Shown here: positions 3,971 to 33,956 of the stretch, in pieces
How the letters are laid out: each line of letters opens with the position of its first letter
Numbering within the stretch: the stretch's first letter is position 1
Assembly: GCA_000004695.1 (NCBI GenBank)
Contig: CM000151.3
Coordinates: 2,080,001-2,144,000, forward strand
DNA length: 64,000 nt
Reading direction: 5' to 3'
DNA from: Dictyostelium discoideum
Taxonomy: Eukaryota
Notes under the pieces: model-generated
Seen by the model: the letters and a program-made list of their open reading frames with translations, nothing else
What the model was told of the DNA's origin: nothing
Database searches by the model: none
Made by a program: the position numbers and the translations under genes

Positions 3971-4055
<85 letters not shown>

Positions 4056-5389
4056 AAAACGATTACGATAAAATAAACGTGGTTGTGAAGATTTTCCAAT
4101 TAATCTAAATAATAAATCTAAATTTATTAAACCTGTTTCTTCATTATATAATGGTTTCTTAATTTTACAATATTCACTCCATGCTGAGCCTATATTATAT
4201 GATGATACTTTTGGTAAATGATCAGTACCCATTAAAAATGTTAACATTACGAAATCAACTATTGCTTGTCTTCTTTTACTAATATCTTCTTCTTCCTCTT
4301 CTTCTTCCTCCTCTTCTTCTTCAATTTGCACCCCTTCTTCTTTTTCCTCTGTTGCTATTCCTTCACCTTCTCCTTCCACTTCTCCTCCTGATTTTTTTTG
4401 TTGTTTTTGTTTTTTTTGTTTCTTTTTATAACATTGTTGATAAATTTTATCTCTAATTTTATCAATTTTAATAATTTCTTCAGAATCTTTATTATAAATA
4501 TAAACATTTTTATATTTTGATAATAATGAAAATAATAAAATATCTGAATCACTAATAATAATAATAATAATAATAAAAATAATATTAATAAATGATTGAT
4601 GATAAACTATTATTATTATTGTTATTATTATTATTTTAATTAATACATACCTTGAAACTATTGTAAATGAATCATTTATTGGATAATTTGAATTTAAAAT
4701 TTGTTCGAAAATTTTAAATTCTCCTTCACCAATTCTATCAGATGCAGAAATAAAAATCTTTTTTGCAAAATATAATTTATTCTTTGTATAAAATATTAAA
4801 AAATCTTTTAATTTACCCATAAATGTAGTACCTGGTGTGAATTCTAATGTTGAGAATGAGCTATCAAATGATTTTAAATCATTTTCATTTAAATAATCAT
4901 AATCGTGAAGTTGAGGTGATTGTTGTTGTTGCTGTTGTTGCTGTTGTTGTTGCTCTTTATTTCTATTTATAAAATATTTTAATTTATCTATATTCCCATT
5001 CTATATAATAATAAATAATAATAATAATAATAAAAATGTTGTATACTACTATTAGTAATTGATGTATATATTTTATATTTTATATTTTATATTTTTACCT
5101 TTAATCTTCTTTCTCTTTGTAATATCATTTTTGATCTAGGACCAGGACCATCAATACCAAAGAATACGGAATGTTTAACACGAACTTTTCTTAAAATTCC
5201 ATCTATAAAAGATTTTAATATTCTAAAAACATTTACTTCTGTATTTAATTTGGAATTATCTCCCCTTTTAACTGATTTATGTAAATAATTATTTAAATCT
5301 ATATATACATGATCGGTGGTAATTTCTTTTACTTTTTCAACACAACCAAATTGTTTACCCATGAATAAATTTAATCCCTCAATACCCAT
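1848..5389 (-). CDS. Divergent XRN-family 5'-3' exoribonuclease-like protein with N/Q-rich insertions. Three exons: 5099..5389 (ATG at 5389), 4651..5000 and 1848..4551. Introns are 5001..5098 and 4552..4650.
   Basis: Exon 1 reads MGIEGL...DLNNYLH...GIDGPGPRSKMILQRERR (XRN N-terminal DG.APRAKMNQQR.RR). Exon 2 reads ...FDSSFSTLEFTPGTTFMGKLKDF...SASDRIGEGEFKI (FDSN.ITPGT.FM; GEGEHKI motif with H replaced by F). Exon 3 reads SDSDILLFSLL (GADADL), FVMLTFLMGTDHLP (FFVGNDFLP) and HYLYGLIWHINYFGGKCNDF (W.YYP.HY). Splice junctions keep frame, with GTAAAA and GTATGT donors. Long (CAA)n and (AAT)n coding tracts. Confidence 0.7.
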
Positions 5390-5727: not shown

Positions 5728-7495
5728 TTATAAAGAGGTACCACTAAATATGGAGAAAGGGTTAGATGGAGTATTCTGATTTTGATTTATTGTGATTGGT
5801 GACCACTCTCCAAATAATGATTGTGATTGTGACTGTGATTGTGGTTGTGTTTGTGGTTGTGACAATTGATTAAATTGTTTTGTTGGATTATTTTGTTGTT
5901 GAACTGATAATGGCCCAAATGATGTAAAAGGTAGTTGTTGTTGCTGTTGTATTTGTTGTTGTTCATTTTCATCATCTTTAAAGTTTGAAATTGTATTAAA
6001 CATTTCCCTTAATGATTTCAAATTACCTTGATTATCATTGTTTTTAATGTTATCATCATCTTCCTCATCTTCATTATTATTATTATTATTATTGTTGTTA
6101 TTGTTATTATTATTATTATTTTTATCAGAAGTTGAGGTTGTTGTTGTTGTAGTTGTGAATATTGATTTATTTGATAACTTTTGAATTTGATTTTGAATTT
6201 GATTTTGAATTTGATTTTGTTGTTGTTGGTGTTCTAGTATTAAAACTCTTTTCATTAAATCTTGAATTAATTTATCCTTTTTTTTATTCTCTTTATAGAA
6301 AGAATCTCTAGTTAATGAATTTGAATGTTTTATTATTGAAATTTCGAAATTCTGATTCACATTATTTTGTTGAATTATAGTTTCAAGTTTTTTAATTTTA
6401 TTTTCTTGTTTCTTTAATACAATCGATACCAATTCATTATGATATTGATGATTTCTAATGAAATGTTTTGATAATTCACTCCTTTTCATTAATTCATTAC
6501 ATGGTGATAATGGTATTATTGATGATGATAAAGATGATGATGATAATGATTGATTTGAGTTGTTTTCATCACTATCATTATTATCATTATCATTATTATT
6601 ATTATTATAAATAATTTTTAATGATTTAAATGGACATTCAATTTTAATTTCTTTACAATGATTTTCAATATGATTTTGTAATTTTAATCTTGTAAATTGT
6701 AAAGAACAATGTTGACAAGTAATTAAAACTTTTAAACATTCAAAGAGGATATGACCTTGCATTTGTTTCATTTGAACAGATTCATCACAATGGGTACATT
6801 TTTGAATGATGAAATCACATTGACTTTCATGTTTATCCCTTTCATTAAATCTAATTATTTCATTACATTGATTATTTATTGAACATTTGATAAATCTAAA
6901 TTCACATTTACTTTCATGTCTATCAATTTCATCAATTGTAATAATTTCTTTACATCCATTAAAGTTATTACTATTATCAAAATTTAAATAATTTGGACAA
7001 TGAATCTGCAATAATAAATTTTGAAATTATTAAATTGTTAAATATGTTAATTTTAATATTAATTTTTTTTTTGGAAAATGTGAATGTGTGTGTGTTGGGA
7101 AGCGTGAGATTCAACTTGGGAAATTTTATTTTATTTTTTTTTTTTTAAAAAAAGATTTATTTAATATATATAAAAGTTACTTTAATAGATTCAGATATTG
7201 ATTTAATAATAAATAAATTATTTGAAAGAGTATTCATTGATTGAATTTGAATTCTGCAAGTTGGACATTCACTTTTAATTTCTAATATACTTTCCCAACA
7301 AGTTAAACAAAAACAATGACCATTAATACATTGTAATGCTTTCATTCTATTTGGTATTAAACTACTAATAAGTAAACCTTCACAAATTTGACATTTAAAA
7401 TTATCTGAAAATGAAATTTCTTTTAAATTATTTTCTATACTTTCATTTTTTATTATTATAAGTTTATAAATTGGTATATCTCTACCCAATTTCAT
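5728..7495 (-). CDS. RING-finger + TRAF-type zinc-finger protein (TRAF-like). Exons 7181..7495 and 5728..7005; intron 7006..7180.
   Basis: Exon 1 reads MKLGRDIPIY...CQICEGLL...CINGHCFCLTCW...CPTCR (C3HC4 RING). Exon 2 reads IHCPNYLNF...repeated C-x-C...H...C TRAF-type fingers, a coiled coil KQENKIKKLETI, and N- and Q-rich tails. Donor GTAACT after ...SISESIK; acceptor TTATTGCAG. Confidence 0.7.
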
Positions 7496-8079: not shown

Positions 8080-9768
8080 TTAAGGTGTATTAGTACCACC
8101 AGATAAATTGATATGATTACTACCATTTATACTACCATTACTACTACTACTTGGAATACTTCCACCATTGTTATTATTATTATTAATAATTGGTGATTGT
8201 GGCATACCAGTACTACCATTAATTAATTGAGGTATTGATTGTTGTGGTACATTCATTGCTTGTAATAATAAATCCAATTTAGTATTTAAAATATTAATAT
8301 TTTGTTGAATTGACTCAAATTTCTTCTTTTCCTTTATTTTAGCTTCCTTTTTCCAAGTATCTAAATCTTTTTTATGAACTTGTTGACCCATTAATTTCAA
8401 TTCAAAAGTTACACCAGTATTTTTAGCGGATTGAATTTGATCCAAATACTTTATTCTTGCCCTTTGAACTTTCATTAATAAATCTGCATAATCACATAAT
8501 GTCTCCTTCATCCTTAATACTTGGTTGAATTATCATAATTTCATCTTTAAATCTCGATGGATCAATACCATCAGTTTCAATTAAACCTGGCTTTTGATCA
8601 ATAAACATTAACACTAAATCATAAATGTCAAGTGAATTTGGAGTGAATAATAATAACAATGATTTCATTGTTCTCTCCCATCTAGTTAATAAATATCTCT
8701 TTGTTTTTTGTTTCTTTTCAAATGTATTACTAATATTTTGATAAGAATCTGAAATGATTGCAACAAACATATTAACTAAAATGAAAAACATAAAAATTGT
8801 AAATAATAAATAATACTATATATAATAACATCAAAAAAATAAAATAAAATATAATTATTAGTATATCTTTAATAATAATAATAGTAATAATTATAATTAT
8901 ACTTACAATTGGACCTAATGCTCTATTTGTATATGACATTGCTTCATAATCTGGTGGATTACCAATAATGAATTGTAATAATGTACCAAGACTAGTAACG
9001 AAGCCATTGAATGAGGCAATATCAGTACCAAAAGTTAACCAACCTGAAAATAAGAAACCCAACATCATAATACAAAACATAATTGTAAATGTAATTAATT
9101 GAAGTCTAGATTGTGAAATTGCAATCCATAAAATATATAATCTTCTATGTACTACTAAAAATCTAAATGTTTTAAATGACATTAATAAAATATCTTAATA
9201 ATAAAAATAAAAAATAAAAAATTAAAATTAATAAAACTAAATAATATTAAAATAGGTATTTTAAAAAATAATAAAAAATAATAATTACTAATTGCAGAAA
9301 TTTGGTATAAAACCAATGCAGTTTGACCTAAATTTTCAAGATATAATGGATAATCAGTAGTAGTTTGAATTTGAGAATTAATATTTAAATCTCTTGAATT
9401 GTCCCCTAAAAATGCTAAATATAATGCAATTGAAGCAATAAATAACTATTAAAAAAAAAAAAAAAAAAAGAAAATTAGTACTTTTTTATTTTTTATTTTA
9501 TTTTATTTTATTTTTTATGTAAACTTACAGTTAAATTTATAACATCGAAAATATTCTTAAAATTTGAAATATAGAATTTAAATCTACCCAATTTAAAGTC
9601 AATTCTAGCTTCATTAACAAAGTAATAGAAATAATATAAAATAAAAATAAAAAAGGAAACTTCTAAAAATCCTCTAAATTTATCCAATGCATCCATATAT
9701 AATTGAATTCTATAAGTTCTAATTGAATAATAGGGATTAACTGATCCTGATGCTGTCCACTCTGTTAA

Positions 9769-9808
<40 letters not shown>

Positions 9809-10097
9809 AGTTTTTTTTATTTTATTTTATTTATATAAAAATTATTAATTATTAATTATATTACCATTGTAAATACTGAAGTTCTAGATTGGAAATTTAA
9901 ATTTAATGTTGAGAATGAAATTATAACAGATCTAGTTTGAATATCGAAAAAACCATTATCAATTAATGATTCAACCCCTGTTTTAATATCTGAAACTGGT
10001 ATATCAATATAATATCCACTACGATCCCATACATATTGATTATGACCTAATTTTATTATTATCATTATTTTTGGTAAATTATTTATTTAATTAATAA

Positions 10098-10147
<50 letters not shown>

Positions 10148-10413
10148 CAAAAAAACATACCAAAAACATAAGAACCATGTGAATTTGAAGTATAGGTATA
10201 CATATCATTAGGACCAAATGGTGATCTATCTTTTGTATCTTTATCATAATTATTTGAGTAACATGTTAAATTAAAACCATTATTACTACATGAATCAGGT
10301 TTTACTCTTGCAGTTCTAATTCTAATTACATTTCCAATAATTTTATTCATTGCATCATTATTTTCCAATGACATATCTGATATTGATTCACAAAATGTTG
10401 AATTTAAATACTG

Positions 10414-10453
<40 letters not shown>

Positions 10454-10794
10454 AGTAAAATTTATTAAATTAAATAAATATTAAAATAATATTATTTACA
10501 GTTATAAAATCAGATGGATTATTAATTTCAAGGTATTGGCTATCTTGACTAAATAAAATTTGATTTTTTAGGGATGTATTGATAATGAATAATGATTGAG
10601 GATTTAATTGAAGTACAACGATTAATACGAATACAACAAAGAATACAAGGTGAATAATTAAATCTTTAACTAATCTTGCATTTCTTTGAGTTTCAACTGC
10701 TGCCAATAATGTTGCTTTCTCTTCTCTGGTTTTATTCTCTAATGCTTTAACAGCTTCAAGTCTTTGAGAGAAAACTGTCCTCTTTAATGTATTC

Positions 10795-10796
<2 letters not shown>
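8080..10796 (-). CDS. pkd2: Polycystin-2 / TRPP-type cation channel. Six exons are resolved confidently: 10500..10796 (ATG at 10796), 10161..10410, 9865..10046, 9529..9768, 9289..9445 and 8907..9193, plus a seventh exon at about 8815..8492. ORF 8080..8511 (coiled-coil tail) overlaps it in the +1 frame.
   Basis: TM1 LIIHLVFFVVFVLIVV; polycystin loop CESISDMSLENN...; FFIFILYYFYYFVNEARI / YISNFKNIFDVINLTV matching PKD2 TM2-TM3; MSFKTFRFLVVHRRLY...ITFTIMFCIMMLGFLFSGWLTFGTDIASFNGFVTSLGTLLQFIIGNPPDYEAMSYTNRALGPI | YYLLFTIFMFFILVNMFVAIISDSYQ (pore helix + TM6, compare PKD2 ...[40 protein letters not shown]). Donors GTAAAT, GTATGT, GTAATA, GTAAGT, GTAATT and GTAAGT with matching phases. The symbol is inferred from D. 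discoideum having a single PKD2 homologue. Line 8761 of my reading is offset by 1 nt from the ORF track. Confidence 0.75.
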
Positions 10797-10843
<47 letters not shown>

Positions 10844-12079: not shown

Positions 12080-14128
<2,049 letters not shown>

Positions 14129-31170: not shown

Positions 31171-33956
31171 TTATTTATCAAATGAATAATTTGGATGTAT
31201 AATTAATATTCTATGATCAGGATATTGATTTGGTACTAATACAACAAGAGAATTGTCTTTGTTTATCATTTTATTGATAACCATTTTAGTGATTTTAGTT
31301 TCTTTTGTAACTTCATCATCAGTGATTATGCCAGACTCCAATTGATCTTTAATGTACCAATCGATAAGATCAATTTGTTTTATACCAGATTTCTCTTTTC
31401 CTGATTGTTTAATTTGTAAAACTAATAATTTTGATAATTGTGAATATTTTGAAAAATTCATAGTTAATTTGCCAATACCATCATCACCATCTTCTTCAGC
31501 ATGGTTATCGTTATCATTTTCAACATTTTTGACTAAATCATCATCATCATCACCTAAAATTACATCATTTGTTTCAACATGAACTATTGATTTCTCTAAT
31601 AATCTTGCAGCTTCATTTACATATTTTGGTAAAACTTTTGTATCTAAATGTAAACGAGCCAATGATTCCGATAAACGAACTAATGATTCCAATTGTCTAA
31701 CTGTGATTCTGTATGCTGGAGTTTTTGAACCACTGGTATCCATTTGACGTAATCTATCGTAATGTCCCACCAATAGTTGTACACTTTCATCTGGAATGGT
31801 TGGACAAATGAATTTTGTATACTTTATATAGTTTTTAATTTCAGTTGCAGAGAATGGTGCGTTGAATGCTTTTTCACGTTTTTGATGAGTCAACACGATA
31901 TGCTCTGCTATTCTATGATCAGATTCTGGATTACATTCATCCAATACCACAAAGAATAAATCGAAACGTGACATTAGTGGACCACCAATATTTAAATTTT
32001 GTTTTAAAGTTTTATTACGATCATAACGACCACCAATTGGATTTGCTGCTGCTAAAATACTAGTACGAGCATTCAATGATGCATGAATACCCGCCTTTGC
32101 AATGGAAATGGTTTGTTGTTCCATTGCTTCATGAATTGCAACTTGGTCACCTGGCTCCATTTTATCAAATTCATCAATACAACAAATACCATTATCTGCC
32201 AACATCAATGCACCTGCTTCAATATTAAAATCACCACTTTCTTGATCCTTTACAACTGTTGCCGTTAAACCTGCTGCACTACTTGCTTTACCAGATGTAT
32301 AAACTGTACGTGGTAAAAATGATACTAAATACTTTAAAAATGTACTCTTTGATGTTGATGGATCACCAACAATACAAACATTAATATCACCTCTTAATCT
32401 AATCTTTTCTGGTGTTTTCTTATGTACACCACCAAATAACATTAATAATACTCCTCTTTTAACTAAAATAAATAAATTAATAAATTAATAATTTTTTAAA
32501 TAAATATCTATATAAATTATTATTATAAATTATTATTATTATACTTTACTTTCTTCATGACCAAAAATTGAAGGACAAATTGAATTTACTAAATTTTGAT
32601 AAATTTTTTTACTTTTAATCATTTTCTTTAAACTATCTTTTTCTTTTTTTGGTAAAGAATCTAAAAAGGATTCTTTTGATTCAGGTTCTAAATCTTCATC
32701 AATGATACCAACTGAATGAGAATGACCACCATGATTATCACCAGATTCTTTACGATTGATTGAGGAAAGTGTTGAAACATTTGAACGAACACTTTGAGAG
32801 AAGAAACAAACTCTATAATTCATTTCTCTAACACCTAAATCTTTTAAACCACCAACACCACCAAAATCATCCTTACCATTTGCATTTGAACCTTCCTTTG
32901 TGCTCGATGCTACACCCTTGATAATTTGAGCATTATTACCAATGGACATTTTAGAAACATCTGGAATTACATTCATCGTACCAACAAATGTACATGTATC
33001 ACCAGCTCTAGCGGTTTCAACCGAATCACCACGTAGAATGATCTCTAATGATCTTGGTACGCTACCACCTGGAATTTCGGAATTGTTTTCTTGAACTCTA
33101 ACTTTTTGCCAATCAGTGAATGTCGACTCCTCTAAATTTATCTTCCAACGACGTTGATTTGAACATAACGGATTCAAACATTTGGTTGGTTCTGTATATT
33201 TAAATTGTTGGGCTATTGGTAACGATGAGGTATTACAATCCTTACAAATGAATGACCCAATAACCAACTCTGGTCTAACCTCTGACGTTCTCGTTACTGT
33301 ACCCGATATAGAACATAATGATCCTATCCTACTTGATCTAAGTTCTCTAATATGTACAAACGTTGAAACATTATAACAACAAATTGATAATACTATCCTT
33401 TCTTTATTAACTCTCTCCATAAATGATGGAAAATATTTTTGTATAAAAATTGATAATCCTTGTCTTATCGCTGGTTCTAATCTAATATTTATATAATTTT
33501 ATAATTAATTTAAATTCAACCAATTTTTTTTTTTTTTTTTTTTTTTCCTTTTTTTTTTTTTTTTTTTAAATCATACCTAAAATATTCCATTAATAATGCT
33601 TTTCCTAAACCTTTATCAAATTTCTCTAAATGTAAGAAATCTATATATAAACTTGATTTATCATTTTTTATCATTCTTTCAACTTGTTGACGATAATAAC
33701 TTTTATCTATTTTCTCTTTTTTAATACCATTTTCGTCATATTCATTTTCATTTTCATTATTATCTTCATTATCTTCATTATTATTATTATTATTATTTTT
33801 ATCAATTTTTTTTTTTAATTTAAAATTATTTAAAAATTCTAAAAATTTATTTTTTGTCCATTCTTTTGCTTCATCTTGTACCTTTTGAAATTGATGTGTT
33901 TGATTTGGTCTTATTGTTGCTTTATCTTCATCAACTCCAGCATCTGTATATATCAT
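31171..33956 (-). CDS. mcm6: DNA replication licensing factor MCM6. Exons 33577..33956, 32550..33481 and 31171..32462; introns 33482..33576 and 32463..32549.
   Basis: The N-terminus is ...FQKVQDEAKEWTKNKFLEFL...LLMEYF. It continues RLEPAIRQGLSIF..., the zinc finger CKDC...CLNPLC, ...IFGHEE | IKRGVLLMLFGGVHKK, Walker A GDPSTSKS, IDEFDKM, and an arginine finger SRFDLFF. The C-terminus VLPKYVNEAARLLEKSIVHVE...HPNYSFDK matches MCM6-specific tails. Donors GTATGA and GTAAAG, phases consistent. Confidence 0.9.

Follow-up and report, generated by a model that had tools for sequence, protein, structure and literature searches.

A frame break in the last exon of the Dictyostelium discoideum polycystin-2 gene pkd2/trpP and its probable origin in the reference sequence

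In the reference sequence of Dictyostelium discoideum the last exon of a polycystin-2-type channel gene holds two reading frames: the frame of the channel runs into a stop codon, and a second frame, displaced by one nucleotide, is already open before this stop and continues for a long stretch beyond it. This raises the question whether the second frame encodes the C-terminal tail of the channel, and what separates it from the channel frame. A sequence-only reading of the locus had left a sequence error, a real frameshift or pseudogenisation of the tail, and a very short intron side by side as explanations. The comparisons described here, made on a stretch of 64,000 nucleotides (contig CM000151.3, positions 2,080,001 to 2,144,000; "the window"), favour a sequence error and speak against both a very short intron and an old pseudogenisation of the tail.

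The pkd2/trpP gene and the two frames of its last exon

The gene is the known D. discoideum pkd2/trpP (DDB_G0272999), which encodes a polycystin-2-type TRP channel (UniProt Q558Y3, RefSeq XP_644933, as cited in PMC3919814). Our hand-built and checked model lies on the minus strand, as do all pkd2 features below, extends from the ATG at 10796 to the TAA at 8080 (10796..8080) and comprises seven exons (10796-10500, 10410-10161, 10046-9865, 9768-9529, 9445-9289, 9193-8907 and 8815-8080). Its six introns measure 83-114 nt, have a GC content of 3-9% and are bounded by GTAA or GTAT and AG, and the GC content of the exons is 23-28%. As it stands in the window, the coding sequence amounts to 2149 nt, i.e. 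a multiple of three plus one, and deletion of the G at 8503 yields a single open frame with a pkd2 product of 715 aa and no internal stop.

With the extra G counted in, ATG 10796 to TAA 8080 spans 2717 bp, and 2717 bp is also the length given for 'pkd2' (DDB_G0272999, Polycystin-2 homologue) by Allan et al. (2024; PMC11012017). The published primers POLYF (ATGAATACATTAAAGAGGACAGT) and POLYR (reverse complement of TGGTGGTACTAATACACCTTAA) match both ends of the gene exactly, POLYR falling on the stop codon of the tail, the TAA at 8080. Length and primer matches thus identify the locus as pkd2/trpP with the length it has in the reference, and indicate that the accepted gene includes the tail. For the primer pair POLYF and PolyMR (10796..9694) an RT-PCR product of 787 bp has been reported (Allan et al., 2024), where our exon model gives 804 nt of cDNA; the published figure may be imprecise by these 17 nt. 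At each of the three junctions between the two primers, the exon model aligns with a distant orthologue without a gap.

The identification of the gene as a polycystin-2 channel, already proposed from the sequence alone, is borne out by domain and structure searches. The PKD_channel domain (PF08016, S1-S6 with the pore) is found at residues 275-498 with 92.9 bits (Pfam cut-off 22.4) and the Polycystin_dom (PF20519, the TOP domain in the extracellular loop between S1 and S2) at residues 88-263 with 45.8 bits (cut-off 23.6), and structures of PKD2L1 and PKD2 in the PDB align to residues 43-510 of the product with E = 2e-42 to 1e-38, i.e. around 1e-42 for the best of them.

The last exon (8815..8080) codes for TM6, a linker, the YYADLLMKV motif and then a helical tail. 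It is 736 nt long in the window and 735 nt long in conspecific contigs, where it forms one continuous frame. In the window the channel frame reads ...IMIIQPSIKDEGDIM, i.e. ...IETDGIDPSRFKDEIMIIQPSIKDEGDIM, and ends as ...SIKDEGDIM* at a TGA (8494..8492). The +1 frame opens after a TAA (8532..8530) and runs from 8529 to 8080, where after 149 open codons it reaches the TAA at 8082..8080; its first ATG, at 8511, starts a stretch of 143 codons (product MKETLCDYADLLMKVQRARIKYLDQ...TNTP) that overlaps the channel frame by 20 nt, counted from this ATG to the stop. The sequence-only reading had placed the end of the channel frame at 8492 and the 143-codon frame at 8511 with the same overlap, and our coordinates agree. 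It had also pointed to an offset of 1 nt in line 8761, for which we found no matching feature in the sequence; the actual 1-nt anomaly lies at 8503. As a control, the +1 frame was followed across the pkd2 coding sequence, where it meets a stop every ~14 codons (7.1%) and stays open for 62 codons at most, and when the 450 nt in question were shuffled 200,000 times, the frame never stayed open. Given this off-frame stop rate and the outcome of the shuffles, the open run of 149 codons is not a product of chance.

Several features around the gene were recorded in passing. A run of ~44 A lies directly upstream of the pkd2 ATG (10797..10843, minus strand) and another of ~50 nt in intron 2 (10089..10146, minus strand), and short-read contigs of the pkd2 locus break at these homopolymers. 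The downstream neighbour (5728..7495, minus strand) seems to be a gene of two exons, the first of which would encode a Cys-rich, RING-like segment (CQICEG...CPTCR) and the second repeated Cys/His motifs resembling TRAF-type zinc fingers, followed by long Asn/Gln runs. In the intron between its ORFs 7157..7495 and 5728..7011, the Logan contig L005 has one A fewer than the window in a poly-A tract and one CA fewer in a (CA)n tract (~7146 and ~7095, minus strand), which could reflect microsatellite variation between strains or miscounted homopolymers. On the other side of pkd2, a long CAT/ATG repeat (12747..12959), read as a run of ~45 His on the plus strand and as a Met run on the minus strand, is located just upstream of a 389-aa ORF (12959..14128). 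Long triplet repeats are typical of Dictyostelium.

Conservation of the tail across dictyostelids

A protein search with the product of the last exon returned one cluster with two members, P0001 from D. citrinum and P0002 from Logan assemblies of public read sets, both of which are uninterrupted across the break (...IMIIQPSIKDEGTLCYYADLLMKVQRARIKYLDQ...). P0002 is a continuous ORF of 236 aa on two independent Logan contigs of D. discoideum, L002 (SRR26869267, 8 samples) and L003 (SRR28564543), i.e. in nine samples in total, and these contigs are genomic, because they contain the sequence of intron 6. A full HMMER scan with P0001 added two further dictyostelid polycystins, P0003 (749 aa, from GCA_001606155.1, which we take to be Tieghemostelium lacteum) and P0004 (511 aa). 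Both carry channel and tail in one chain, with the motif YYADL[LV]MKV[QH]R[AS]R.KYL and both of its tyrosines invariant, and in the genome of P0003 the last exon is one block of 209 codons. The contiguity of channel and tail is therefore seen in four relatives, and the alignment with C-termini of other dictyostelid PKD2 proteins, which had been suggested as a check, places channel and tail in one frame in every one of them: conspecific contigs, D. citrinum and the two farther polycystins all read ...SIKDEG-TLCYYADLLMKVQRARIKYL... across the site. The best-conserved stretch of the tail, (Y)YADLLMKVQRARIKYL (8493..8443), shows no or almost no variation among the five dictyostelid sequences aligned, and begins 10 nt past the inserted base.

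Selection on the two sides of the break was compared between the window and D. citrinum by the method of Nei and Gojobori. The 96 codons upstream of 8503 gave a dS of 0.29 and a dN/dS of 0.015; the 140 codons of the tail gave a dS of 0.28 and a dN/dS of 0.158, and the first 95 of them a dS of 0.33 and a dN/dS of 0.052. With dS alike on both sides of 8503 (0.28-0.33), the low dN/dS of the tail indicates that it has been translated in what is now the +1 frame essentially since D. discoideum and D. citrinum split. Judging from this substitution pattern, the tail is under purifying selection. An old pseudogenisation or decay of the tail was rejected on the same values (dN/dS of 0.158 overall and 0.052 over the first 95 codons) and on the 149 codons over which the frame has stayed open. 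The view of the tail as a conserved part of the channel protein has thus held up, and by alignment the +1 frame (8529..8080) is the true continuation of the channel protein.

Further downstream, a long helix is predicted in the tail (KKDLDTWKKEAKIKEKKKFESIQQNINILNTKLDLLLQAM, 8373..8254), which would be the 'coiled coil' of the literature; a C-terminal coiled coil in the pkd2 product has been described by Lima et al. (2014; PMC3919814). Read from the sequence, the last 22 residues of this helix, in FESIQQNINILNTKLDLLLQAM, follow a clear heptad a/d pattern F-I-I-L-L-L-M, and a single-sequence AlphaFold model places the helix at residues 133-172 of P0001, with low confidence (pLDDT 39).

The D. 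citrinum orthologue differs from the window in its gene structure. It has a canonical, very AT-rich intron of 96 nt (L001 4234..4329; GTAAGA...TACTAAT...AAAG) at the place that corresponds to 8544|8543 on the minus strand of the window, where it splits an Asp codon (GA|T) in ...RFKD|EIM.... This intron is absent from the window, from the conspecific Logan contigs and from the last exon of a distant dictyostelid (L004 3304..3930), and constitutes a precise presence/absence difference between sibling species. The annotation of D. citrinum presents the pkd2 orthologue as two genes of 471 aa and 231 aa (L001 1666..3858 and 4001..4792), the first of which seems to run through the donor of intron 6 (GTATAG) and to end at a stop behind it; the public proteins of D. 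citrinum pkd2 are accordingly fragments.

Two base changes and the candidate bridges between the frames

The alignment of the window with L002/L003, which covers ~900 nt from within intron 6 through the entire last exon to 90 nt into the 3'UTR, contains two differences only. The first is an extra G at 8503 (GAA GGA [G] ACA), a 1-nt insertion relative both to the D. discoideum contigs L002/L003 and to D. citrinum, which pushes all downstream sequence into the +1 frame. At the second, 8493, the window has G where its relatives have T and where P0001, P0002, P0003 and P0004 have Tyr; this G turns TTA into TGA in the shifted channel frame and the invariant Tyr into Asp in the tail frame (TGT GAT versus TGT TAT). 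The apparent stop of the channel frame at 8494..8492 arises solely from these two changes. With the extra G, the window reads GAAGGA-G-ACATTA, and GGAGACATTATGTGAT (also written GAAGGAGACATTATGTGATTATGCAG) across 8490..8506, and the junction in the version that lacks it is GGAACATTATGTTAT (also written GAAGGAACATTATGTTATTATGCAG). D. citrinum DNA is identical to L002/L003 at both positions and reads GGA-ACA TTA TGT TAT. On the evidence of these alignments the state of the window is derived, and the species normally has a continuous frame. The frameshifted ORFs of the window itself (143 aa and 99 aa) are absent from the public assemblies, in which the sole D. discoideum samples, two SRA series, come from another strain, and a metagenome scan for either version of the junction gave 0 matches.

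In the arrangement that we propose, the last exon would be one frame leading from TM helix 6 through the linker and the invariant YYADLLMKVQRARIKYL motif into the coiled-coil-like helical tail of a 715-aa protein. The extra G at 8503 would shift the downstream sequence into +1, the T-to-G change 10 nt further on (8493) would create the TGA of the apparent end, and neither an intron nor a ribosomal frameshift would join the frames.

The extra G might nevertheless be real in laboratory strains, with the two frames joined by splicing of a very short intron. Such an intron could be either the 49-nt candidate of the sequence-only reading (GTATTG..CCAAG, 8568..8520, GC 0.29) or a 37-nt pair (GTATTA..TGCAG, 8520..8484, GC 0.35); both have GT..AG ends and a fitting phase, and splicing them leaves an open product of 703 or 699 aa, and the donor GTATTA resembles the genuine pkd2 donors GTAATA and GTAATT. 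The public gene model extends to the stop of the tail and may hold such a bridge, and in-frame C-terminal tags on cDNA-derived constructs, discussed below, fit splicing as well. However, with 37 or 49 nt these segments are shorter than half of the shortest real intron (83 nt), and their GC content of 29-35% compares with 3-9% in the six real introns. Both are conserved, translated coding sequence in conspecific contigs, in D. citrinum and in farther dictyostelids: the 37-nt splice would remove the invariant YYAD, and the 49-nt splice, in a region where relatives encode GIDPSRFKDEIMIIQP, would swap 22 conserved residues for six unrelated ones (VLRMKE). The 49-nt pair had been described as the only phase-compatible one, which does not hold. 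When all GT..AG pairs joining the two frames were enumerated, dozens proved phase-compatible, among them pairs of 37 (8520..8484), 52, 67, 85, 100 and 103 nt, and such pairs occur by dozens by chance. The accompanying statement that no plausible intron joins the frames stands, since all of these pairs have an exon-like GC content of 26-35% as compared with the 3-9% of real introns. Both candidates were rejected on length, composition and the conservation of the segments as coding sequence, and we regard splicing of a 37- or 49-nt intron as very improbable.

A programmed +1 ribosomal frameshift at the stop would join the frames on the geometry of the site. If AUG UGA U were read as AUG-[U]-GAU, in the manner of antizyme, skipping the U of the UGA at 8494 would lead exactly into the frame of the tail and produce ...DEGDIM-DYADLLMKV..., and selection does act on the tail. 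But the shift site owes its existence to two derived base changes, and the frame break occurs in no relative, hence there is no conserved recoding site. Folding of 81 nt from 8500 gave a minimum free energy of -5.9 kcal/mol (z = +1.47), and 195 of 200 shuffles folded at least as well, so that no stimulatory RNA structure was found in these 81 nt 3' of the shift site. With no downstream structure and no conservation of the break, a programmed frameshift was discarded, and its probability appears close to negligible.

Reference error, strain-private mutation and known systems

Evidence on the state of the tail in laboratory strains comes from tagged proteins. Traynor and Kay (2017; PMC5312093) amplified the trpP coding sequence without its stop by RT-PCR from Ax2 cDNA and fused it in frame to a C-terminal GFP, obtaining fluorescence at the plasma membrane; the 3' primer position is taken here from the gene model. 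In the same work the plasmid pDT41, expressing TrpP from the same coding sequence under its own promoter, restored the response in the null mutant, and in DH1-derived cells a Flag tag at the C-terminus of PKD2 proved detectable (Lima et al., 2014; PMC3919814). The GFP and Flag fusions, being in frame, indicate that the tail is translated in frame in laboratory strains, and exclude an unspliced frameshift for those NC4-derived lines. They fit both a gene that lacks the extra G and one from which the extra G is removed by splicing, and do not by themselves separate the two.

That the break is a local base-call error in the Sanger-era reference is what we consider probable; the insertion at 8503 is observed in the window, and its status as an error is suggested by the following points. 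In independent AX4 lines, Saxer et al. (2012; PMC3466296) counted 1,916 differences from the reference that the lines have in common, which they ascribed largely to reference errors or stock differences, and put the mutation rate at 2.9e-11 per site and generation. Discrepancies of the reference, then, far outnumber real private mutations. In addition, the two changes at 8503 and 8493 lie 10 nt apart with no third difference in 900 nt, a spacing that for independent mutations would have a probability of ~2% by our estimate. Such clustering is what a short stretch of low-quality Sanger sequence gives, unusual as it still is for finished sequence.

The comparison with the Logan samples has to be read in the light of their origin, as they stem from another D. 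discoideum strain than the window and inform on the state ancestral for the species, not on that of AX4. This follows from three synonymous third-position SNPs (33361, 33211 and 33115) in a minus-strand ORF (32539..33420) with an MCM_OB domain, which are common to all Logan contigs of this MCM-like gene in both SRA series (SRR26869266-68 and SRR28564540-43). Being of another strain, the Logan samples leave room for a lesion private to the window's lineage. The insertion at 8503 and the change at 8493 would then be real mutations of AX4 or of the sequenced clone, and polycystin-2 would be truncated after ...SIKDEGDIM, lacking YYADLLMKV and the coiled-coil tail. Compared with D. citrinum and a wild-type-like strain of D. 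discoideum, the window is in a derived state, as would be expected for a lineage-specific mutation, and the intact tail ORF with its low dN/dS is also what a lesion of very recent date would leave behind. AX4 also carries other strain-specific lesions, e.g. the axeB deletion (PMC4374526). On the other hand, with GFP in frame on Ax2 cDNA and Flag in frame in DH1-derived cells, the lesion could only have arisen after AX4 had separated from these lines; the measured rate of 2.9e-11 allows no more than a handful of mutations of this kind in the whole genome, against ~1,900 reference discrepancies, and paired changes 10 nt apart would need a rare complex event. We therefore hold a truncated polycystin-2 in AX4 to be improbable. 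The broader possibility that the AX4 lineage does carry the extra G, with polycystin-2 either truncated or its tail rescued by an intron of 37-49 nt or by a +1 shift at AUG-UGA-U, is somewhat less improbable, and still unlikely. A truncation, if true, would set AX4 apart from Ax2 in a channel on which purinergic and mechanical calcium responses depend. The supplements of Bloomfield et al. (2015) contain no mention of pkd2/trpP, and the papers on pkd2/trpP consulted here make no mention of the frame break in the last exon.

With a reference error as the probable cause, the flagged +1-frame tail most likely represents no biological feature of its own; pkd2, the channel that it encodes and the coiled-coil tail had been described before. 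The practical consequences concern gene models and constructs. A model built on the window sequence is left with two choices, a truncated protein or an invented tiny intron, and a public gene model that reaches the stop of the tail would have to bridge the break artificially. Truncated or mini-intron models remove or garble residues around the most conserved motif of the tail, in that ...SIKDEGTLCYYADLLMKV..., which is the corrected junction, becomes ...PNLLMKV... or ...TDVLRMKETLCDYADLL.... For C-terminal constructs, CRISPR guides and mutants near residues 590-610 of PKD2/TrpP the use of the corrected sequence is advisable. For genome scans the locus advises caution, as a clean +1 continuation with low dN/dS at a stop marks recoding no more often than it marks a sequence error.

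The break can be set beside two known phenomena. Its geometry is like that of the antizyme-type +1 frameshift, where a +1 shift at a UGA likewise enters the downstream frame; unlike in the antizyme type, the shift in pkd2 is not conserved, is accompanied by no stimulatory structure in the 81 nt folded, and corresponds to a plain continuous ORF in the relatives. It is also like the base-level errors of the 2005 AX4 reference, which are local discrepancies between reference and species; the count in PMC3466296 covered substitutions and not indels and does not list this site, so that pkd2 would join this class by analogy.

The channel itself resembles human PKD2 and PKD2L1 (5z1w, 5k47, 5t4d) throughout the S1-S6 core and the polycystin (TOP) domain, i.e. 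over residues 43-510. Past residue ~510 the tail has no match in Pfam or the PDB and no sequence match to the coiled coil of human PC2, and what the dictyostelid tail has in common with the human C-terminus is at most a helical coiled-coil character, not a detectable sequence homology. The Dictyostelium pkd2 product has been described as lacking an EF-hand and an ER-retention segment (PMC3919814). The published features of pkd2/trpP, namely six TM helices, a pore, a C-terminal coiled coil and localization at the plasma membrane, fit the corrected product of 715 aa.
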